In this document: in pieces, positions 16,553-28,688 of the stretch
How positions within the stretch are numbered: position 1 is the stretch's first letter
Layout of the letters: the number at the start of each line of letters is the position of its first letter
Source: Candidatus Krumholzibacteriia bacterium
Lineage (GTDB): Bacteria; Krumholzibacteriota; Krumholzibacteriia; LZORAL124-64-63
Assembly: GCA_014859985.1 (NCBI GenBank)
Contig: JACZKN010000074.1
Coordinates: forward strand, 1 to 32,823
Reading direction: 5' to 3'
Length of the DNA: 32,823 bases
Program-made: the position numbers and the translations under genes
The notes under the pieces: model-generated
Told to the model about the DNA's origin: nothing
Databases searched by the model: none
Seen by the model: the letters and a program-made list of their open reading frames with translations, nothing else

Positions 16553-19500
16553 GTGTCGTTCCCGGTGGACGGTATCCCCGCGACCTTGACTTGGGACTAT
16601 CAGGGGCAGTTTCCGGCAATTTTTGACGATTACTTCGATAAGTTGACGAACGGCAAACTCCGCCTCGATCCTGCATCCGGGATCCTCTTGCCTCCCGGAG
16701 AGGTTCTAGATGAAGCTCATCCAACAGCGCAGACTTGGCAGGCCGAACTCGGCGGCGTGCAGTACCGGACCGATGCCTCGTTACCGGCGGGTTACACGTA
16801 TCGGTACCTCTCGGACTGGTGGGTGGGCCTCGACCACTACGCATCGCCGCTTGGGGCGGAGATCCTACACAAGATCTGGACCGCGTATGCGGGCTCCGGG
16901 CAGGATCTGTTCCCCGTCGTTCCAGGCGCGGATCCCGAGTGGCAGCTGTTCCTACTCTACGTGACCAACCGGTCGCCTTATGCCTGGGACATCGGAGGGC
17001 GCCCGAACGTGCCCGTCAGGGCGGTGGAAGTCAACGCCGGCACGGATGGATTCTTCGCCAACGTCGCGGTGACCCCGGGGGGCGAGTTTCTCGGCACGAA
17101 CCAGCAGGCGCTTGCCGCAGATGTGCTGCTGGGGCCGCGGCATCCCCATGCACCCTTGCGGCCGGTAATCCACGAGTTCATTCACACGCTCGGGATCCCG
17201 GACGGTCCGCCCAATCTCTATTTGGTGGACAATCTCTACTCGGAAATGAAATACTTCTACGGGAACCTCAACATGATCTCCCAGGCGTTTCCGCATGACA
17301 ATGATGGATGCGTGGGCATCGCCCCATTCAAGGGTTTCCCGCCCTTGGCCGATCCCCACCTGGCCCGTCTGCCCTGGCATGACGGGTCCGATGGCGGGGA
17401 AGTCGTCAGGGATTTCAGCGATATTTCGCTTTGGAACGAGAAGGTCTACTCCGTAGGCTCCGGCGGCAGATTCTACAAGTACATTGTCGGCGAAAACGTG
17501 TCCGGGACCTTTCCCATCGAGGAGAGCTTCATCTTTGCCTATCATGCCGGCGACGGGCTGGATGACCAGGGATACGTACCCGGCGAACCGGTCGTGCCGA
17601 GCCGCGGGCTAGCGATCTGGCACTGCATGGGTGACGGGTCAGGACCGGGTGATTTCCTGGATCTCGAATCGGCGCACGGGTTGTTCGACTACAAGGATCT
17701 CGGGCTACGTACATTCGTACCGTACTGGGGGGATCCGGCCGTCGCGGCCGCGGCCAATCCGATCGACGGCTTCGACAACTACGACCTTTGGGCGTACTCG
17801 CCGACGGATTACCGGACGGACTACTGCTCGGATGATGGGTCCGAGGCGGATTTCTTCCAGATCAACCCGACCGTACCCCATCTGGACAAGCGCCGCTTCG
17901 ACTGGACCACGAACCCGAACACGAACGGCTACGCCTGGCCGGACGGCTCGGGTGTCCTCGACCGGCGCCGTCCGCAGAACGTGCCGACCTCGCTGGTCGT
18001 CCGGATCAGGGGCACGGGCTCCGATGCCAATGGCGAGTACATGATCGTCGATCTGCTCTGCGGCCCGGCGGAGCGGGTCGTTTCCCCAACTCTCGACGGG
18101 CTGGTCTTCGCCCCGGGATCGACCTACGACCTCACGTTGTCCACCGATTACGCCGAGGCGATCTCGTCCTACGACGTGTATCTCTCGACCGACGGGGGGG
18201 CGAACTACTGGTACACGGTAGCCGAGGGTGTCCCCTACGGGCCGACGGACAACGTCTTTCACTTCACGCCGCAGGCGGGCCAGGGGACGGCTGGCGGCAA
18301 GCTGAAGTTCGTCTTCCACAACACCCGGGACCCGTCGCGGACCGCTGCGTCGACGACCGACGGCCTGTTCACGATCGACGCGACCGTCGTGGTCAGGGGC
18401 GATATCACGCTGCCGGATGGCGGCGAGGAACTTTCGACGCGGACGGCAGGTTTCATCGAATGGCACGACTTTTTCGCAGGATACCCCGCCCTGTCCCCTC
18501 AGATCGTCAGTGCGCAGATCGAGCTGCTGACGGACTGCCAGATCGACCCGATCCAGCTTGGCACGTTCTTCAACCCGACACTCGTCCACGAACCGGTCCC
18601 GGACGAGTTCTTCGAGTTCGTGTCAAGGGACGGCAGCATCTACGGCCGGGTAGCTTTCACGCCCGACGACACGCTGGTGTGCGACCGCGCCCGGATCAGG
18701 GTCACGTTCGAGTCGGCAACCGGGACCACGGTCGACGAGTCAGCGGCGGATTTCGCGATCCTGCCGTTGCCGGTGCGGTTCGTCGCAGAGGCGGCGGCCG
18801 AGCACGGCGTGGACTATACCGGACGGGCGGTGGGGATGAGCGTCCTGCATCTGGACGCGGACGACCTCCCGGACCTCTTCGTGGCTATCGGGAATAGACT
18901 CGCTGATCCGGATGAGCACTCGCACCTGTATAGGAACTCCAGCTTACAATTGGGCGAGATCCGATTCACCGACCTAACCGGATTCCGCTTCGTCGGCGGT
19001 GATCTGCCACCAGCCGAGGCGGACGCTGTAGCGATTGCCGACGCCGACGGTGACGGTCGCCTAGAGATTGCCATGGCTCACCTGACGACCCCGGCGTTCT
19101 ACGTGGAAGGTCCTGATGGTGTCTTTGCCAATGTCCTAGGCGACACGAACTACTTCGACCCCGATGAGGTCGCGCTGCTGGCGGAGTCCCGGAGCCTCGC
19201 CTGGTTCGACCACGATCACGACGGCGACCTCGATCTGCTTGTGGGCAAGGGGCTCGCGGCCGGACCCAGCCCGACAAGCCTGCCGCCTGTCCTGTTCCGC
19301 ACGTACAGCCAGGCAGATGGGGCGACCTCCACGCGGCTAAGGATCGACGACGGGTGCGGTCTCACCGCCTCGGAGAGCTTCACGACGGCGATTGCAGTCG
19401 CGGACTACGATGGCGACGGACTTTGGGAGATCGTGACGGACAATATCGCCAATCCCTTGGGGCGCCTGCGGGCGAGTGAAGAAGAGATTCCGGGCCACTT

Positions 19501-20686
19501 CGAGGCCGCGACTGCATTTGCCACGGAATTCGTTGGGCACAGCGGCCTGGGCGCGGCAGCGTGGGCCGATTACGACCGCGACAACGACCTCGATCTGGTA
19601 TGCGTCGACCAGTGGGTACTAGCGATTGCGGCGGGCGCCTACTTCTACGTCTATGAGAACGTGGGCGGCACTCTGGCACCGACGCCGACGATCACGCAAG
19701 CCCTGCCCGGCCGCAGCCGCGCGTCCCACGTCGCGGACATGGACCTCGACGGGTATCCGGATGTTATCGTGGTCGGCGACGAGACCACGGGCGGCGAGTT
19801 TTTCCTGAACAGAGTCAGCGATGGCGCCGTGGGCAACCGCTTCGTTGCGCGCGGGACGGCTTCCGGCTTCGTTTCTGCAGGGAGTTACGGCTATGCGGCA
19901 GCCATCGCCGACTTCAACGGGGACGGTTTCGCCGACATCATCGCCGGACGGGACGATCTGGCGGGACGTGTCCTGCGGACCGTCGACACGGGTCCCGGCG
20001 GCGCAAGCGCCCCGAATTGGCTGAAGCTGAAACTTATCGGTGACGGTGAGGACAACGAGGTGGGAATTGGGGCTACGGTCCGGCTGTCCACCCCGGGCGG
20101 TGATCCCCTCGGCGCCCAGGTGGTCGTGGCGGCCAGTCGGGCGGGCGGGCAATCAGATCCCGTTTTGACTTTCGGGCTGGGGACCTATGCCGGTGACGTC
20201 AACGTCAGGATCGACTGGCCCCTGGGTCTGCGTCAGGATTTCACGGTCGGTAGCGGTTCCCTCAACAGCCTGGTCACGATGGGGCAGCCGGTCGGGTTCA
20301 CGCTCGACAACGGATCGGTCGGCGTCACGAAGACATTCGACGCGATATATGGTTCCATGGAGTGGACTTTCGAGTGGCTCACGGACCGCCTGACATCCCT
20401 GGAGTACGACATCATCGCAATCACGAACACCAGCGGCGGGGACTGCATCTTCAGCGAACTCCAGGTTGCGGGGCCGGAATGGATCACGCCGGCCCGCTAC
20501 GAGATCGACGCCGTCACCGGCCAGGTCCGCTTCCGTCACGAAGCGACACTCCGCTTCGGGGATTGCCATTCACCCTGCGTCTACTCGTACACCGTACAGA
20601 GCCAGGACGCGCGCGACCTCTATCCGCAAGTCAGCTCCACGAAGACTCTGAAAGTCATGGCCTGTCCGGTCACGGGCGGAGAGTAG
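16553..20686 (+). CDS. Large exported multidomain protein: M6 (InhA)-like HEXXH metalloprotease + two Ig-like 'P.GGE' domains + FG-GAP/VCBS propeller + ASPIC/UnbV (CRTAC1-like); 5' end frameshifted
   Basis: HEFIHTLGIPD (17171-17203), PSRGLAIWHC, YLSTDGGANY, LPDGGEEL, seven DxDxD-type repeats, NWLKLKLIG...GIGATVRL...LTFGLG...IDWP. Confidence 0.8.
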   Translation: MSFPVDGIPATLTWDYQGQFPAIFDDYFDKLTNGKLRLDPASGILLPPGEVLDEAHPTAQTWQAELGGVQYRTDASLPAGYTYRYLSDWWVGLDHYASPLGAEILHKIWTAYAGSGQDLFPVVPGADPEWQLFLLYVTNRSPYAWDIGGRPNVPVRAVEVNAGTDGFFANVAVTPGGEFLGTNQQALAADVLLGPRHPHAPLRPVIHEFIHTLGIPDGPPNLYLVDNLYSEMKYFYGNLNMISQAFPHDNDGCVGIAPFKGFPPLADPHLARLPWHDGSDGGEVVRDFSDISLWNEKVYSVGSGGRFYKYIVGENVSGTFPIEESFIFAYHAGDGLDDQGYVPGEPVVPSRGLAIWHCMGDGSGPGDFLDLESAHGLFDYKDLGLRTFVPYWGDPAVAAAANPIDGFDNYDLWAYSPTDYRTDYCSDDGSEADFFQINPTVPHLDKRRFDWTTNPNTNGYAWPDGSGVLDRRRPQNVPTSLVVRIRGTGSDANGEYMIVDLLCGPAERVVSPTLDGLVFAPGSTYDLTLSTDYAEAISSYDVYLSTDGGANYWYTVAEGVPYGPTDNVFHFTPQAGQGTAGGKLKFVFHNTRDPSRTAASTTDGLFTIDATVVVRGDITLPDGGEELSTRTAGFIEWHDFFAGYPALSPQIVSAQIELLTDCQIDPIQLGTFFNPTLVHEPVPDEFFEFVSRDGSIYGRVAFTPDDTLVCDRARIRVTFESATGTTVDESAADFAILPLPVRFVAEAAAEHGVDYTGRAVGMSVLHLDADDLPDLFVAIGNRLADPDEHSHLYRNSSLQLGEIRFTDLTGFRFVGGDLPPAEADAVAIADADGDGRLEIAMAHLTTPAFYVEGPDGVFANVLGDTNYFDPDEVALLAESRSLAWFDHDHDGDLDLLVGKGLAAGPSPTSLPPVLFRTYSQADGATSTRLRIDDGCGLTASESFTTAIAVADYDGDGLWEIVTDNIANPLGRLRASEEEIPGHFEAATAFATEFVGHSGLGAAAWADYDRDNDLDLVCVDQWVLAIAAGAYFYVYENVGGTLAPTPTITQALPGRSRASHVADMDLDGYPDVIVVGDETTGGEFFLNRVSDGAVGNRFVARGTASGFVSAGSYGYAAAIADFNGDGFADIIAGRDDLAGRVLRTVDTGPGGASAPNWLKLKLIGDGEDNEVGIGATVRLSTPGGDPLGAQVVVAASRAGGQSDPVLTFGLGTYAGDVNVRIDWPLGLRQDFTVGSGSLNSLVTMGQPVGFTLDNGSVGVTKTFDAIYGSMEWTFEWLTDRLTSLEYDIIAITNTSGGDCIFSELQVAGPEWITPARYEIDAVTGQVRFRHEATLRFGDCHSPCVYSYTVQSQDARDLYPQVSSTKTLKVMACPVTGGE

Positions 20687-20696
20687 GAGGGGACCC

Positions 20697-21575
20697 ATGA
20701 AGATCTTCAATCTTGTGCTCGTGCTGCTGGTCGCCGCGTGCGTTGCGCCGGCGGCTGACGGGATCGACTACCCCAAGGCGGAAGGGATCATCGGCATCGA
20801 CGCGGGCGGCAGCGCATCGTGGCTCGCCGTCAGGGTCGACGTGCCGGAGGGCATGGCTCTCGCGGGATTCGCCTGGTACAACAACGATGATGCGACGGAA
20901 TTCCCCGGCGTGTATCTAGGCACGGGCTACGACCGGGGGCCGGCCCCGATGGACGAAGCCCTGGCGGTCGGCGGCTTCTTCGGCGGTGCGGCGGACTCCT
21001 GGTCGCAGCTCGAATTCGCCCAGCCGGTCGCGGCCAGCCTGGGCAACCTGTTCGTCATCTTCGCGTTCCCCGCGGGCCCGGTCTACACCGACCGTGGCAG
21101 CGGCGGCGGGCCGGGGGTGGGCTACGTGGCCGGCGACAAAGGCAGCCGCGGCTGGATCAGCGGCGACGGGGAGTCGTGGCTGGCATTGTCCGCCGGGTAC
21201 GGCTTCGCGGTGCTACCGCGGTTCGTCGCGGCGGACGGTGCCGTTCTCGCTAAGGCGCTACGCATCGGCGGCGCTCCTGCCGGTGGGGCGCCACAGATCC
21301 TCAAGGATTTCTTGCAAGCCGCACCAAATCCGTTTAACCCGCAGACAAGGATCACCTACGGCTTGAAGACGGGCCGGGACGTCAAGGTGGAGGTCTTCGA
21401 TCTGCGCGGCCGGCTCGTCAAGCGCTTGTTTGGCGGCATCCAGGAGGCCGGCGAGCATGAGGCGGTCTGGCGGGGCGAAGACGCCGGTGGTCGCCGGGTG
21501 GCAAGCGGGGTCTACCTCGTCCGGATGCACGGTAGCGACATCGCCTTGACACGCCGCGTCATTCTGTTGAAGTGA
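20697..21575 (+). CDS. Secreted protein with C-terminal FlgD-Ig / T9SS type-A-like CTD
   Basis: Signal peptide MKIFNLVLVLLVAACVAPAA; PNPFNPQTRITY...VFDLRGRLVK...W.G.D..GRRVASGVYLVR; SD AGGAGG. Confidence 0.85.
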   Translation: MKIFNLVLVLLVAACVAPAADGIDYPKAEGIIGIDAGGSASWLAVRVDVPEGMALAGFAWYNNDDATEFPGVYLGTGYDRGPAPMDEALAVGGFFGGAADSWSQLEFAQPVAASLGNLFVIFAFPAGPVYTDRGSGGGPGVGYVAGDKGSRGWISGDGESWLALSAGYGFAVLPRFVAADGAVLAKALRIGGAPAGGAPQILKDFLQAAPNPFNPQTRITYGLKTGRDVKVEVFDLRGRLVKRLFGGIQEAGEHEAVWRGEDAGGRRVASGVYLVRMHGSDIALTRRVILLK

Positions 21576-21592
21576 AGAATGAGGAAACGATC

Positions 21593-22834
21593 ATGAACTG
21601 CCGCCTGCATACCATGCTCCGCATTGCCTTGGCCTTGGCCGCCGCCGTCGCAACGGCCGGGCCGGCCGAGGCGCGAACATGGCAAGTGGCCAAGTCGGGG
21701 GAGAGGGACTTCGCGGTGATCCAGGACGCTGTGGATGCGGCCGCGTCCGGGGACACGATCATGATCGGTCCGGGGCGGTACGAGGAGTTCACTTGGATAA
21801 CGCTGGGGAACTTCTTGGTCTACGTTGAAGGTCGCGACAAAGACATGACGATCATCGGGGCGGGCATCGACGAGACGATCATAGGGCACGAGAACCCTCC
21901 GTTTCCGGATAATGTCGGGACGACTGGGATCATATGGCGAGGTTCCGGTGTCGCGTTGTCAGTCCGCGGTCTTACGTTGGATAACCTCCAGGCAGCAAAC
22001 GGCTTCTTCTACGATGGGAGGCGATTGGAGATTGATGACTTCGCGGTCAGAAATTGCTATGTGGGAATCAATCTCGTAGCCCGCGAAGGCGGATGGATCC
22101 GCAACTGCGAGTTCGAGACGGTCGGGTACGACAGCACCGATCTGACGATTACAGCGCAATCCGTGATCGTATACGAGCCCACGGTCGATTTCGTTATAGA
22201 ACAATGCACGTTTGTGGACTGCGGCATTGGTGTGGGGGCCTATTGGGACTTCACGGACAATATTGCTGTGCAATACTGCAGCTTTCGTGGGGGCAAGGGT
22301 GGGGTCGACTTCAACAGCGGCGCCTCCGGGACGATCCGCCATTGTACATTTTTCTCGCAATACCAGTACGGCATCGTCGGCAGCTTCAACGACGGCGCCA
22401 CCCTCGTGATCGAAGACAACACCATCGTGGCCGACCATCCCGCCGGCAAGGCCTACGGCTTCAGCCTCTATTGGCCCCGGGGCACCTACACCCTTCGCCG
22501 CAACACGATCACCGCCGCCAACGGTAACGCCTGCATCTGGGTCACCGTCCCAAACGCCGTCTTCGACGCCCGCGACAACCACTTCCTGCGGGCCGACACG
22601 ACCTCGTTCCTGGCCAAAGGCTTCGCCAATCCGAATGCCCCCGGCGCCCCGTTCACCATCGACGCGACGGGCAACTGGTGGGGGACGACGGACCCGGCCG
22701 AAATCGCCGCGGGCATCCTCGACCTGCAGGACGACCCGGCCCTGGACTACCGGATCGTGTTCGAGCCGTTCCTGGGCGGGCCGGTGCCGGTCCGGAACCG
22801 CAGTTTGGGGGGCGTGAAGGCGCTGTTCCGGTAG
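21593..22834 (+). CDS. Secreted right-handed beta-helix (pectin lyase-like fold) protein with short C-terminal SLGGVKALFR tail
   Basis: Signal peptide ending AEA; IQDAVDAAASGDTIMIGPGRYEE cap; IRNCEF/IEQCTF/IRHCTF/IEDNTI repeats; IDATGNWWGT; ATG 21593 after GAGGA (alternative GTG 21572). Confidence 0.85.
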   Translation: MNCRLHTMLRIALALAAAVATAGPAEARTWQVAKSGERDFAVIQDAVDAAASGDTIMIGPGRYEEFTWITLGNFLVYVEGRDKDMTIIGAGIDETIIGHENPPFPDNVGTTGIIWRGSGVALSVRGLTLDNLQAANGFFYDGRRLEIDDFAVRNCYVGINLVAREGGWIRNCEFETVGYDSTDLTITAQSVIVYEPTVDFVIEQCTFVDCGIGVGAYWDFTDNIAVQYCSFRGGKGGVDFNSGASGTIRHCTFFSQYQYGIVGSFNDGATLVIEDNTIVADHPAGKAYGFSLYWPRGTYTLRRNTITAANGNACIWVTVPNAVFDARDNHFLRADTTSFLAKGFANPNAPGAPFTIDATGNWWGTTDPAEIAAGILDLQDDPALDYRIVFEPFLGGPVPVRNRSLGGVKALFR

Positions 22835-24022: not shown

Positions 24023-24991
24023 ATGATCGAAGTCAAGGGACTGACGCGGCGCTACGGCTCGACCCTGGCCCTGGACGACGTCAGCTTCGACGTCGCCGCG
24101 GGCGAGATCGTCGGCTTCCTGGGCCCCAACGGCGCCGGCAAGTCGACCACCATGAAGATCCTCACCGGCTCCCTGGCGCCCACCTCCGGCAGCGCCCGCG
24201 TGGCCGGCCACGACCTGGCGAGCGAGCCGCTGGCGGTGCGCCGCAAGGTGGGCTTCATGCCCGAACACGTGGCCCTGTACGGCGACATGGGGGTGGCCGA
24301 GCTGCTGCGCTTCGTGGCCGAGCTCAAGGGCACGCCCGCGGCCCTGCAGGCCGGCCAGGTGGCCCAGCTGCTGGACCGGACGGGCCTGTCGGACGTGCGC
24401 CACCGCCTGGTCGGCACCCTCAGCCACGGCTACCGCAAGCGCGTGGGCCTGGCCCAGGCCCTGATCGGCGAACCCGAGGTGCTGGTGCTGGACGAGCCCA
24501 CCAGCGGCCTGGACCCTCACCAGATCGTCGAGATCCGCGAGCTGATCCGTTCCTTCCGCGGCACCCGCACGGTGCTCTTCTCCAGCCACATCCTGAGCGA
24601 GGTGGCGGCCATCTGCGAGCGGGTGCTGATCCTGGACAAGGGGCGCCTGGTGACCGGTGAGGTGGCCGCGGGCCTGGCCCAGGACGCCCCCGCGGCGTCC
24701 CGCAACACGGTCGTGCTCTCCTGGGACGGCGACCGCGAGGCCGTGACCCGGGCCCTGGCCCTGGTCACGGGGGTCGACAACGTGATCGTCACCGACCAGG
24801 GCGCCGAGGTGCTGATCGCCGGCAACCCGGTGGAGATCCGCCCCAGGCTGGTCGAATCGGTGCTGGCTGCCGGCGGCCGCCTGCAGGGCCTGCAGGACAA
24901 GGGGCCCAGCCTGGAGGACCTCTTCCTGCGGCTGACCGGCGCCGGGCGTGACGCGGACGGCGCGGACGGCGCCGAGGAGGCCCGGCCATGA
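24023..24991 (+). CDS. ABC transporter ATP-binding protein, GldA-like
   Basis: GPNGAGKST, LSHGYRKRVGLAQA, VLDEPTSGLDP, SSHILSEV, C-terminal SLEDLFL. Confidence 0.92.
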   Translation: MIEVKGLTRRYGSTLALDDVSFDVAAGEIVGFLGPNGAGKSTTMKILTGSLAPTSGSARVAGHDLASEPLAVRRKVGFMPEHVALYGDMGVAELLRFVAELKGTPAALQAGQVAQLLDRTGLSDVRHRLVGTLSHGYRKRVGLAQALIGEPEVLVLDEPTSGLDPHQIVEIRELIRSFRGTRTVLFSSHILSEVAAICERVLILDKGRLVTGEVAAGLAQDAPAASRNTVVLSWDGDREAVTRALALVTGVDNVIVTDQGAEVLIAGNPVEIRPRLVESVLAAGGRLQGLQDKGPSLEDLFLRLTGAGRDADGADGAEEARP

Positions 24992-27177
24992 GGCAGCTGC
25001 GGGCCATCCTGGGCCGCGAGGTCGGCTCCTTCTTCCACGGCGCCGTCGGCCCGGTGGTGCTGGTGGGCTTCCTGGTGGGGGTGGGGCTCTTCTTCACCCT
25101 CTTCGTGCTGGGCTACAGCGAGATGTCCCTGACGGCCATGCAGTCGGCGCGCAGCGGCAACTACCTGAACCTGGCCGAGGGCCTGTTCCGGCCCATGGTC
25201 TCGAACATGACCCTGTTCCTGCTGCTGCTCTTGCCGGCGGTCACCATGCGCCTGTTCGCCCCCGACTACCGCTCCGGGCGCTGGGAACTGGTGGCCAGCT
25301 GGCCGGTGCCGGACCTGGTCTGGGTGCTGGGCAAGTGGCTGGCGGCGGTCGCCGTCGCGGCGGTCCTGATCCTCGGCTCGGGGGCCTACTTCGGCGCCGT
25401 CTGGCTGCTGGGAAGCCCGGAGCCCGGACCGCTGGTGGCCGCGTGGCTGGGCCTGCTGCTGTACGCCGGCTGCCTGGCCGCCTGGGGCGTGCTGGCCTCG
25501 ACCCTGGTCGGGCACCAGATCCTGGCCTACTTCTCGACCTTCGTCCTGGGCATCGTGCTGTTCCTGGTCGGGGCGCTGGAGCGCTTCCTGCCCGCGCCCT
25601 TCGGCGAGCTCTGCCGCCAGTTCTCCCTGCTGACCCACTTCGAGAAGTTCAGCCGCGGCGTGCTGGACAGCCGGGACATCGTCTGGTTCCTGGCCATGAC
25701 CGCCGTGCCGCTGGCCGCGGCGGCGGCGGTCCTGGCGGGCCGGCGCCAGACGGCCCAGCGGCGCCTGGGCCAGGCCGCGCCGGTGCTGCTGGTGGTCCTG
25801 GTCGCGCTGGTGGCCTACCTGGCGGCCCTGCGCCTGCCGCTGGTGGCCGACCTGACGGCCGACAAGCGCTACAGCCTGGCGCCGCAGACGGTGCAGATCC
25901 TCGAGTCCCTGCCCGACGGGCTGGCGGCCCTGCGGGCCGCGGCGGATTCCGCCGGCGCCGACACCCGGGACCTGGACCACGTCCAGGTCACCGCCTTCTA
26001 CCAGCGCCTGGACCCGGCCCGGGACCTGACCGAGGCCCTGCTGAAGGCCTGCACCCAGCACACCCGGGCCTTCCGCTACCGCATGGTGGACCCGGAGGAG
26101 GAGCTGGATCTGGTGCGCCAGTACGGCGTGAACGTCTCGCGCACCATCGTCGTCGCGGCCGCGGACCGCTGGACCAGCGTCCTGCAACCGGAGGAGGGCG
26201 GGCTCATCAACGCCGTCTACCGCCTGGTCTCGGGCCGCAGCACCCGGGTGCTGCACCTGCTGGGCCACGGCGAGCACCTGCCCGACAGCGACGACCTGGG
26301 TGGCTACTCCAGCTACGGGCAGCTGCTGTACGAGCAGGGCTACGACCTGCAGACTTTGCACCTGCCGGCGGCGGGCCGCGTGCCGCCGACGGCGGACGTG
26401 GTGGTGATCGCCGGCCCGCGCACCGAACCGGGCGACGAGGAACTGGCGGCGCTGGAGGAGCACCTGCGCCGGGGCGGCGCCGTGCTCGGCCTCTTCGACC
26501 CGCCGACCCCGGACCGCTGGCGCCGCTGGCTGGCGCGCTGGCGCGTGGAACTGACCGGCGACGTGATCGTGGCGGCGGACCGGGCGGCCAGCGAGTTCGG
26601 CGTGGGTGCGCGCACGGTGGTCGTCGGCGACGGCTACGGCGACCACACCGTCTCCCGCTCCCTGACGGGGGTGGCCACGGTCTTCCCCCTGGCCCAGCCC
26701 CTGGCCCTGGTGGGGGAGCCGGACAGCGTGGTCGCCGGCGCGGTGATCCTGCGCAGCAGCGAGCTGACCTGGGCCGAGCGCGACCCGGACACCCGCTTCA
26801 GCGGCCGCGCCCGCTACGACGCGGGGGTGGACGTGCCCGGGCCCCTGGATTTCGGCATGGTGCTGGAGCTGGCCCTCGATCCCGAGGGCGGGCGCCCCGG
26901 CCGCCTGGTGGTCGTCGGCAACTCGGAATTCCTGTCCAACGCCAACCTCAACCTGGGGGGCAACCGGGACCTGCTGCTGAACGCCCTGGGCTGGCTGGCC
27001 CGGGAGGAGACCCTGATCCAGCTGCGGGGGCGCGATCCGCTGAGCCAGCCCGTGGTGCTGGACGACACCTGGAAGAAGGTGCTGGGCTGGGGTTCGGTGC
27101 TGGGCTGGCCCCTGCTGGTGGGCAGCCTCGCCGTCGGCGTCATGCTGCGCCACCGCCGGGCAGGGGGTGCCGCATGA
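24988..27177 (+). CDS. Fused ABC-2 permease (GldF-like) + GldG-like auxiliary domain protein
   Basis: Multi-TM N-terminal part (PAVTMRLFA, VLGKWLA, HFEKFSRGVLD); DLTADKRYSL, GHGE, GRLVVVGNSEF, GNRDLLLNALGWL; C-terminal TM. Confidence 0.88.
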   Translation: MRQLRAILGREVGSFFHGAVGPVVLVGFLVGVGLFFTLFVLGYSEMSLTAMQSARSGNYLNLAEGLFRPMVSNMTLFLLLLLPAVTMRLFAPDYRSGRWELVASWPVPDLVWVLGKWLAAVAVAAVLILGSGAYFGAVWLLGSPEPGPLVAAWLGLLLYAGCLAAWGVLASTLVGHQILAYFSTFVLGIVLFLVGALERFLPAPFGELCRQFSLLTHFEKFSRGVLDSRDIVWFLAMTAVPLAAAAAVLAGRRQTAQRRLGQAAPVLLVVLVALVAYLAALRLPLVADLTADKRYSLAPQTVQILESLPDGLAALRAAADSAGADTRDLDHVQVTAFYQRLDPARDLTEALLKACTQHTRAFRYRMVDPEEELDLVRQYGVNVSRTIVVAAADRWTSVLQPEEGGLINAVYRLVSGRSTRVLHLLGHGEHLPDSDDLGGYSSYGQLLYEQGYDLQTLHLPAAGRVPPTADVVVIAGPRTEPGDEELAALEEHLRRGGAVLGLFDPPTPDRWRRWLARWRVELTGDVIVAADRAASEFGVGARTVVVGDGYGDHTVSRSLTGVATVFPLAQPLALVGEPDSVVAGAVILRSSELTWAERDPDTRFSGRARYDAGVDVPGPLDFGMVLELALDPEGGRPGRLVVVGNSEFLSNANLNLGGNRDLLLNALGWLAREETLIQLRGRDPLSQPVVLDDTWKKVLGWGSVLGWPLLVGSLAVGVMLRHRRAGGAA

Positions 27178-28688
27178 GCCGGGTGCGCCTGCTCCTGGTC
27201 CTCGGCGGCGTCCTGGCGGCGCTGGCCGTCGCGTTCTGGCTGCTGCGGGCCGACCGGGACACCGACCTGACCGCCGGCGGCCCCCTGCTGGCCACGGACC
27301 TGGGCACGGTCGAGCGCATCCAGCTGACGCTCAGCGGCGTGCCCACCGTGTTCGAGCGCCGGGAAGACTCCCTGTGGACCATGTCCGGGGCGGTGCACGA
27401 CTGGGTCGATCCCCTGCGCCTGTCCCAGCAGCTGGCGGTCCTGGGCGCGGCCGAAGGCGGGCGCCTTTTGCCGGGCACCGAGCCGGAAGACCGCCGCTAC
27501 GAGTTCAACGGGCCCCAGGCGGTGCGCCTGGTCCTGTTCGGGCCCGGCGGCAGCGAGGAGCGCCTGTCCCTGGGCGCCGCGAATCCGGTGACGGGCAACG
27601 TCTACGCCAGCGGGGCGGGACGGACCGCCTGCTTCCCCGTCCTGGCCGAGACCCGTGACCGCCTGGCCAGGCTGCCGGAGGCGGTGCGCCTGACCACGGT
27701 GCTGCCCCCGGTGCCGCTGACGGCGCTGGAGCGCATCACGGTCACCCGTGGCCGCCGCACCGAGGTCCTGGCGGCCGCAGGCGGCCGCTGGTGGCTGCTG
27801 GTGCCGGCCGCCGACCTGTCCGTCCTGCCGCCGTTGGCCCAGGACTGGCAGCGCCTGCACGACGACCGCCGGCGCCGCGACGACGAGGGCCTGTGGGTCC
27901 TGGCCGACGAACGCCGGGTCGGCCTGCTGGCCTACGAGGCGGGCCAGCTGCAGGTCAGCAGCTTCGTGCCGCCGGAACAGGCCGCCGACGCCCTCGACCA
28001 ATGGGAGCTGGACCCGGCCTGGCTGACGGTGGTGCTCGAGGGCCGCGGCATCGACCCCGACCCCACCACCGGCACGCCCGACCGGCTCGTGGTGGGCTTC
28101 GGCCCGCCCCTGGACGAGAAGACCGTGCCGGCGGTGCGCCGCGGCAACCCGCTGCTGGTGCCCCGGCAGGCCCTGGCCACCCTGGAGGCCCCGCCGGGGG
28201 ACCTGCTGCACCTGTTCGCCTTCACCGACCGGCCCCTGCTGGCGGACGAGGTGGAACTGGCCGCGGCCGGCGGCCCGCTGCTGCGGGCCCGCCGCGTCGA
28301 GCGGGAGGTCCGCCACGACGAGCGTGCGCAGTGGGATCAGCTGCTGCCCGAGCCGGGCCGCGACGAGGCGCGCGCCCACCTGACGGCCCGCAACTTCATC
28401 GTCGACCTGGACCGGCTGGCGGTGCTGGCGGTGCTGCCGCCGACGGATGCCAAGCGGGTGCTGCAGCCGGAGGGCCGGGTCACGGTGACCGTGCGCTGGG
28501 GCGATCCCGCCCGCAGCGAGGTCTGGCACTGCGGTCGCCTGGACCTGCCCAACGTGCCCGGCGGCCCCGAACGCCTGGTCCCCGGCGACGACGGCGAGGG
28601 GCCGGTCGGCTTCTGGCGCCCCGCCGACGGCCGGCTGCTGCAGGTGCCGTCCACGGTGCTGGTCACGGCGCGGAACCTGGCGCGCTGA
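27174..28688 (+). CDS. Membrane-anchored DUF4340-like protein (usual partner of GldAFG-like transporters)
   Basis: ATGA overlap with the upstream stop; N-terminal TM MSRVRLLLVLGGVLAALAVAFWLL; VERIQLT/LERITVT repeated modules; gene context. Confidence 0.7.
   Translation: MSRVRLLLVLGGVLAALAVAFWLLRADRDTDLTAGGPLLATDLGTVERIQLTLSGVPTVFERREDSLWTMSGAVHDWVDPLRLSQQLAVLGAAEGGRLLPGTEPEDRRYEFNGPQAVRLVLFGPGGSEERLSLGAANPVTGNVYASGAGRTACFPVLAETRDRLARLPEAVRLTTVLPPVPLTALERITVTRGRRTEVLAAAGGRWWLLVPAADLSVLPPLAQDWQRLHDDRRRRDDEGLWVLADERRVGLLAYEAGQLQVSSFVPPEQAADALDQWELDPAWLTVVLEGRGIDPDPTTGTPDRLVVGFGPPLDEKTVPAVRRGNPLLVPRQALATLEAPPGDLLHLFAFTDRPLLADEVELAAAGGPLLRARRVEREVRHDERAQWDQLLPEPGRDEARAHLTARNFIVDLDRLAVLAVLPPTDAKRVLQPEGRVTVTVRWGDPARSEVWHCGRLDLPNVPGGPERLVPGDDGEGPVGFWRPADGRLLQVPSTVLVTARNLAR

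Follow-up and report, generated by a model that had tools for sequence, protein, structure and literature searches.

A predicted Sec-exported beta-helix protein encoded in the 32,823-nucleotide stretch of DNA analysed here (the window) ends in a short C-terminal tail (Table 1), which raises the question of whether this tail is a dedicated sorting signal and, if so, which machinery reads it. The original prediction, made from the letters of the sequence, held it to be a dedicated export or surface-attachment tag of unknown machinery. The first part is supported, as the tail is terminal, portable and enriched on signal-peptide proteins; the second needs correcting, as the machinery now has a strong candidate in an operon encoding a barrel and two lipoproteins, LipA and LipB, with a predicted role in export or anchoring. 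Tail and operon together make up what is probably an undescribed protein-sorting route.

Table 1. Coordinates of the tail, the cargo gene and the neighbouring cassette genes in the window.
Feature	Position	Strand	Remarks
C-terminal tail, PVPVRNRSLGGVKALFR-stop	22781..22834	+	Linker V-P (PVPVRNR), core S-L-G-G-V-K-A-L-F-R, stop
Ten-residue core, [ST]-[WLF]-[GS]-x-[LV]-K-A-L-[FY]-R, predicted donor helix	22802..22831	+	Profile matches the LipA C-terminal helix
Cargo gene, 413-aa right-handed beta-helix protein	21593..22834	+	ATG start at 21593; alternative GTG at 21572
Predicted Sec signal peptide, residues 1-27, end A-E-A	21593..21673	+	Sequence and home-made heuristic
Beta_helix PF13229 match, residues 139-306	22007..22510	+	Pfam, E 2e-14
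Upstream 292-aa signal-peptide protein with FlgD_ig / T9SS type A-like CTD	20697..21575	+	PF13860, E 1e-9; TIGR04183, 27.6 bits, over cut-off
Large FG-GAP/ASPIC protein with HExxH motif, first cassette gene	16553..20686	+

The tailed protein and its cassette

The original description of the locus was borne out: the open reading frame lies exactly where it had been placed, with a Sec-type N-terminus and a PF13229 match. The tail is not a transmembrane anchor, the best 19-residue Kyte-Doolittle mean over the last 40 residues of the window protein being 0.64, and it is unlike a type IX secretion system (T9SS) C-terminal domain (CTD), with no match to TIGR04183 or PF18962 on the window protein. 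Three close orthologues (75-83% identical) share this tail at their ends. More widely, a variant of the tail was found by eye at the end of 66 of 68 homologues (227-723 aa), the remaining two looking truncated. The strict regular expression is matched by 49 homologues, in which the position of the tail 'W' is occupied by L in 23, W in 19, F in 6 and M in 1; the W-to-L variant remarked upon originally is therefore routine.

The tailed gene is the last of three in a cassette of lower GC (16553-22834) between rplQ and fabH, which codes for a large protein, a small CTD protein and the tailed beta-helix protein, and in which the CTD gene overlaps the alternative GTG start of the cargo gene. Its FlgD_ig/T9SS-like CTD is the other sorting signal of the source genome. 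A similar arrangement is present on source-genome contig C448 (26465-30484), and beta-helix paralogues are found on C27, C473 and C507. Tail-only remnants of the beta-helix gene lie at C134:1809-1991, C228:602-727, C113:1340-1525 and C303:10082-10237; those on C134 and C228 directly follow a CTD gene, and in the one on C303 the tail is joined to part of a CTD. These remnants may represent deletions, recombination at the tail, or misassembly. Elsewhere in the window (24023-28688), a GldA-like ATPase is encoded together with a fusion resembling GldF and GldG and one more membrane protein; each of them scores under the NCBIfam cut-offs.

Copies and carriers in the source genome

The source genome (G000) comprises 4.05 Mb on 609 contigs and is 91% complete. 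A position-specific scoring matrix (PSSM) for the tail was built from regular-expression seeds and used to scan all six frames at a threshold of 14 bits. Of 63 matches, 61 lie within five residues of a stop codon and two are weak and internal; the window tail, one of the 61 terminal copies, scores 40.5 bits. The regular expression proposed with the original prediction matched 28 called-gene termini and two internal sites in 1.095 million positions, compared with 0.0 of 3147 termini on average when these were shuffled 200 times. The tail is not a chance pattern. Its consensus is [VI]-P-x-[ED]-x-x-[ST]-[WLF]-[GS]-x-[LV]-K-A-L-[FY]-R, and its core is a predicted short, amphipathic, basic helix with a mean hydrophobic moment of 0.48.

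Carriers of the tail are diverse. The 54 carrier bodies longer than 70 residues form 36 BLAST clusters, and among 22 sampled carriers four matched LTD, CHRD or DUF4397 over the cut-off, two gave weak matches and 16 had no Pfam match. By a home-made heuristic, a signal peptide is present in 39 of 48 complete carriers versus 545 of 2429 other genes (odds ratio 15); the same heuristic scored one in 75 of 96 CTD proteins. Unrelated carriers, enrichment among signal-peptide proteins and restriction to C-termini had all been expected of a dedicated tag, and all three are found here. Carriers are also small, with a median length of 204 aa (88-420) against 728 aa (154-2469) for CTD proteins (P 7e-19). 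The largest carrier has 420 residues in the source genome and 515 among 65 carriers from elsewhere.

The tail and the T9SS-like CTD are interchangeable at the same junction in paralogues. A CTD ends eight of 11 tail-less relatives of carrier bodies versus 123 of 3554 called genes, and a pair of paralogues on contig C553 (58% identical) diverges exactly at the start of tail or CTD; the swap is absent from all 68 beta-helix homologues of the window protein. A [VI]P dipeptide is frequent upstream of both tails and CTDs, whereas an [ST]xV linker is found at 45 of 98 CTD junctions (control 7/98) and before only three of 55 tails. Because this linker is rare before tails, cleavage of the tail is not favoured, and the cleavage near 'PV' proposed in the original prediction is without support.

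An operon encoding a barrel and two lipoproteins

A screen of the lipoproteins and barrels of the source genome singled out a candidate operon on contig C420, in which a 5'-incomplete barrel gene (at least 635 aa) is followed by genes for two lipoproteins of about 205 residues each, LipA and LipB. None of the three products has a Pfam or NCBIfam match; for the barrel this applies to the incomplete source-genome protein and to six full-length homologues, with DUF560/SlipAM included among the models. The barrel is about 640 residues long, has some 27 amphipathic strands by a crude count and is predicted to be an outer-membrane beta-barrel pore. LipA is present in 59 of 61 genomes of the source-genome phylum. 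There, the order barrel-LipA was seen in all 20 fetched loci, with LipB next in 19; in the loci seen outside this phylum, the barrel gene does not adjoin the Lip pair.

LipA and LipB are paralogous and have conserved core residues in common. An AlphaFold model of LipA (pLDDT 96.3) is NTF2-like by Foldseek (E 1e-6) and by VIA (best Z 13.6, rmsd 2.5, 124 aligned), and an Atlas model of LipB has a TM score by target of 0.82 to a DUF4440/SnoaL cluster. On the basis of these models, both lipoproteins are assigned a predicted NTF2/SnoaL fold.

The link to the tail lies at the C-terminus of LipA, which reads [TS]-W-[GS]-x-L-[RK]-[GA]-x-F, the profile of the cargo tail, and which forms a confident C-terminal helix (residues 171-180, pLDDT about 97) in the model. 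The LipB sequence stops at the strand preceding this helix. Consistent with this, the best window for the cargo-tail PSSM falls within the last 25 residues in 91 of 109 LipA but 16 of 75 LipB sequences, and 10 bits or more are reached by 28 LipA and no LipB. The position of the tail K is K or R in 188 of 188 LipA-like rows. Nevertheless, LipA tails match the cargo PSSM weakly (median 3.5 bits versus 24 for cargo), and the source-genome LipA has M in place of the tail W. As judged from sequence, the likeness between LipA helix and cargo tail is real, but looser than that among cargo tails. Covariation over the 188 LipA rows did not locate a groove, its signal being dominated by conservation artefacts.

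Other members of the Lip family vary. A canonical cargo tail occurs in cis on seven of 37 LipB-profile matches. The source genome encodes two tail-less LipB-like genes; in the second of these (C56:5397-6035), a stop codon stands where a cargo-type tail would have its W and the remainder has decayed, and intact homologues of this tailed gene exist (e.g. P0293). A third NTF2-like paralogue (C350:12588-13106) has a degenerate LipA-type end helix and no lipobox that we could see, and lies beside a two-component system. Tandem arrays of four to six Lip-family domains or genes, some in two-domain proteins, were observed at G243:C5, G248:C1, G253:C28 and G258:C329.

Spread of the tail and the F0 family

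A strict DNA pattern for the tail, run over three of the 64 parts of the GTDB collection, yielded 126 loci. All 129 distinct matches have a true stop codon at the end, although the pattern permitted TGG, and a signal peptide was scored in 65 of 81 complete open reading frames at these loci. Carriers are labelled as Eisenbacteria, Krumholzibacteriia, Latescibacterota, Effluviviaceae, KSB1 and Ignavibacteria, as well as the cultured Adhaeribacter terrigena and Rosettibacter primus. The spread through FCB-related phyla stated in the original prediction holds, and it reaches further into Ignavibacteria, KSB1 and Cytophagales. In the source-genome phylum, the tail pattern is present in 59 of 61 genomes with up to 53 copies, and a reversed control gave two matches in all. 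One 355-aa tailed protein (labelled Kerfeldbacteria) is encoded on a contig that was placed in a genome of 1.3 Mb, G245, without a Lip match, which may reflect mis-binning or transfer.

The tail matches in Ignavibacteria, KSB1 and Bacteroidota belong to a single family, here called F0, of about 130 residues, in which a signal peptide, some 95 residues of FN3-like domain and the tail follow one another. F0 has no Pfam or NCBIfam model. A profile search returned 5029 matches (71-247 aa), full-length F0 is single-copy in each of five genomes checked, and most sampled Bacteroidota have one carrier per genome. The F0 tail is nearly invariant and the body divergent; in the AlphaFold prediction the tail is a short helix of low confidence (block pLDDT 58-64). 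The F0 body domain recurs in many long proteins of F0-bearing genomes. A search of solved structures with alignment A1 gave nothing beyond weak matches to gp130 FN3 domains (E 0.02). The gene neighbours of F0 were considered as machinery and rejected, as they are housekeeping genes only. No clear F0 orthologue was found in the source genome (best E 0.03), which does encode a stand-alone 125-aa signal-peptide FN3-like protein (C269:394-771) of weak F0 likeness (E 0.08), with neither tail nor CTD. The F0 proteins of Ignavibacteria, KSB1 and Cytophagales probably represent the ancestral partner, from which the tag expanded to tens of proteins per genome in Krumholzibacteriota and Eisenbacteria.

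Co-occurrence of tail, lipoproteins, barrel and SprA

Profiling of co-occurring gene families had been suggested as a route to the machinery, and the barrel-LipA-LipB operon does track the tail. The same 151 genomes of the Bacteroidota phylum (that of genome G001) were searched for each part. Full-length F0 was found in at least 55 among the matches listed, the Lip family in 56 (55 of them with one tailed and one tail-less copy), the barrel in 52 (24 with a distant profile) and SprA in 120. The Lip family is present in every F0 genome among the matches listed and in every barrel genome, and SprA in every genome with the Lip family; at least 51 of the 151 have all four parts. Conversely, 64 SprA-positive genomes are without the Lip family, and none of the 31 SprA-negative genomes has it. 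Within the order of G001 (81 genomes), the nine genomes with the tail all fall within the ten with the Lip family. These are plain genome counts, and since relatives do not make independent observations, few gains and losses underlie the co-occurrence.

Of 52 genomes chosen solely by a tail-pattern locus, 50 were searched, and 45 of these have the Lip family. The five exceptions comprise four genomes of 1.1-2.0 Mb and one of 5.0 Mb (G221), and one of the five is a 15-aa chance match. In addition, G176 (96% complete) has two tails and no LipB-profile match, four Lip-positive genomes have no barrel match, and G057 has no F0 among the matches listed. Two cultured strains are included in the distribution: Adhaeribacter terrigena, with all four parts, and Rosettibacter primus, in which searches for F0 and Lip found F0 and the Lip pair.

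Proposed mechanism and alternatives

Sequences and models together lead us to favour an account in which the tail is a donor helix that completes LipB, which in turn hands small proteins to the barrel for export or display; as a whole chain we consider it a little better than evenly probable. The signal would be the ten-residue tail itself, which is portable and sits on small proteins predicted to carry Sec signals. LipB, NTF2-like and lacking the helix, would have an empty groove matching the LipA helix, to which cargo tails would bind in trans; alternatively, cargo may displace LipA's own helix. From LipB the protein would then move on to the predicted outer-membrane barrel of the same operon, through which small folded proteins would pass to export or surface display, with the tail staying uncleaved. 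Fold completion is the simplest account because LipA and LipB are paralogues, one with the helix and the other without, and the cargo would supply it: the putative acceptor lacks an element that both its paralogue and the donor carry. The structure models predict a well-ordered helix for the LipA motif and a poorly ordered tail on the free carrier. Export or display through the barrel is favoured because of the shared distribution, the approximately 27 strands, the CTD swap and the size ceiling.

Several observations count against this reading. Having one carrier in most sampled Bacteroidota is odd for a dedicated channel. The low PSSM scores of LipA tails, and M for W in the source-genome LipA, weigh against a shared helix as far as sequence can tell. 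So do the covariation that located no groove, G176, the tail genomes without Lip and the Lip genomes without a barrel, the barrels that do not adjoin the Lip pair in the loci seen elsewhere, and the beta-helix family without a swap. All of these count against the favoured reading as a whole. The most far-reaching version is plausible, though short of an even chance: an undescribed outer-membrane secretion system beside the T9SS, in which a wide barrel is gated by two NTF2-like lipoproteins and a helix on the cargo licenses small folded proteins, with an ancestral one-substrate form in Ignavibacteria, KSB1 and some Cytophagales and an expanded form in Krumholzibacteriota and Eisenbacteria.

The same parts could also serve for docking without export via the barrel. 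Binding of tails to LipB would then serve only to keep proteins on, or display them from, a scaffold of lipoproteins; F0 would be a permanent member of an envelope complex of four parts, and other proteins would have borrowed its docking peptide. Such docking fits the single-carrier genomes better than barrel export does, given the one near-invariant-tailed carrier per genome in most sampled Bacteroidota; it also draws on the tail being without the [ST]xV junction linker of CTDs, and on extra Lip paralogues in some genomes of the source-genome and related lineages. We nevertheless regard it as rather unlikely, as tens of unrelated carriers per genome are set against the two tail-less LipB-like genes of the source genome, the size ceiling fits a pore, and the tail replaces a secretion-type CTD.

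The association with SprA invites a different account, in which the tail is a fourth, miniature T9SS signal. The Lip pair would do as an adaptor what PorP/SprF do for type B CTDs, bringing tail proteins either to the translocon SprA or to shuttles of the PorV family. All 56 Lip-positive genomes having SprA and none of the SprA-negative genomes having Lip would agree with this, as would the recurrence of the F0 body domain in long proteins of the same genomes and the source genome's own complement of SprA, seven PorV-family genes, one PorV gene immediately preceded by that of a C25 peptidase, and 123 CTD proteins. We judge it improbable, however: 64 genomes combine SprA with absence of the Lip family, the module comes with a barrel of its own, neither the fold nor a motif of the CTD is present in the tail, and SprA carries large cargo, so that a SprA adaptor would not explain the size bias. 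Finally, the short, amphipathic and basic core, with its hydrophobic moment, might suit a machinery-free amphipathic membrane anchor, or the tail might be a protease or stability tag. This is very improbable in our view, as a generic lipid anchor would not be expected to show residue-level invariance of G, K and R, to be so strictly placed, or to co-occur with three particular gene families.

Comparison with known systems

In donor-strand complementation, as in chaperone-usher and type V pili, a partner fold lacks a secondary-structure element that a peptide from another chain provides, and one paralogue can be self-complemented. The tail would similarly supply its partner's missing element, with LipA as the predicted self-complemented paralogue; the donor here, in contrast, would be an alpha-helix on unrelated cargo and the acceptor NTF2-like. 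As far as descriptions of type XI secretion (Slam/DUF560) drawn upon here go, the two have in common a single outer-membrane barrel linked to the export of small Sec-exported cargo, and differ in that the barrel of about 640 residues has no Pfam or NCBIfam match and that the route proposed here would also depend on two lipoproteins and a peptide tag. Clusters bearing SlipAM and BBP2_2 are among the nearest named look-alikes of the barrel in the Atlas, which we treat as a lead only.

Passages of a preprint on tripartite sorting signals (LPXTG, PEP-CTERM, GlyGly-CTERM and MYXO-CTERM) describe them as terminal, present in many copies on unrelated signal-peptide proteins and co-occurring with their machinery, and list among their criteria a hydrophobic transmembrane segment and a terminal cluster of two to five basic residues (10.1101/2023.06.07.544157). 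On that description, the tail resembles them in being terminal (61/63), multi-copy, mostly on signal-peptide carriers (39/48) and traceable to machinery via co-occurrence. It differs in having no transmembrane helix and no Arg cluster (one K and one terminal R), and in that its co-occurring genes encode a barrel and lipoproteins rather than a protease.

In the literature surveyed (listings, openings of abstracts and passages), there was no description of the tail or the module. Searches with literal motif strings returned no relevant paper, and 'TWG' has no occurrence in the main texts of the Haft preprint (10.1101/2023.06.07.544157) and the Poribacteria paper (PMC3909097). This analysis adds that the tail has the motif of the last helix of LipA, that LipB is without it, that F0 is a single-copy family in cultured bacteria, and that the four parts co-occur. 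The signal with its module is a real feature, new as far as the literature surveyed goes, and the proposed mechanism is likely. If the proposal is true, proteins would be addressed to the Gram-negative envelope in a new way, by a tag of ten residues that is read when it completes a fold, and the module of barrel and lipoproteins would be a candidate for a new secretion system in several phyla. Four uncatalogued families would gain a role, and thousands of hypothetical proteins a destination; about 3300 stored stretches match one strict tail pattern. So short a tag would also be useful for engineering secretion or display. As the tail and the Lip pair are present in cultured, named strains, the proposal is directly testable at the bench.

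The type IX secretion set of the source genome

The type A CTD of the T9SS (TIGR04183 / PF18962) is, according to passages of PMC10202324, read by PorV/SprA and cut by PorU, for which a cut motif is also given there. The tail is like this CTD in being a C-terminal signal on Sec-exported proteins that swaps with it at the same junction, and its module was found only together with SprA in the sampled phylum. It differs in consisting of a predicted helix of ten residues where the CTD is a folded, Ig-like domain with some 70-80, in being carried by small cargo without the [ST]xV linker, and in tracking its own barrel and lipoprotein pair. When 42 tails were compared with NCBIfam models, none matched.

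The source genome itself encodes SprA, PorV and a PorU-like sortase. Its T9SS-like set, spread over contigs C336, C67, C289, C578, C504, C81, C552, C157 and C434, comprises SprA, a PorU-like/PorV pair, PorV-family genes that all score over cut-off, and the CTD proteins. GldM and GldN had no match in this 91% complete genome, where the controls were silent too, and its T9SS is possibly motor-less. A 358-aa lipoprotein (C62:2972-4006) and a barrel of more than 1039 residues (C102:1-3120) each resemble SprA over a short segment in its interior (E about 1e-7), and on this sequence likeness they are possible SprA-related accessory proteins.
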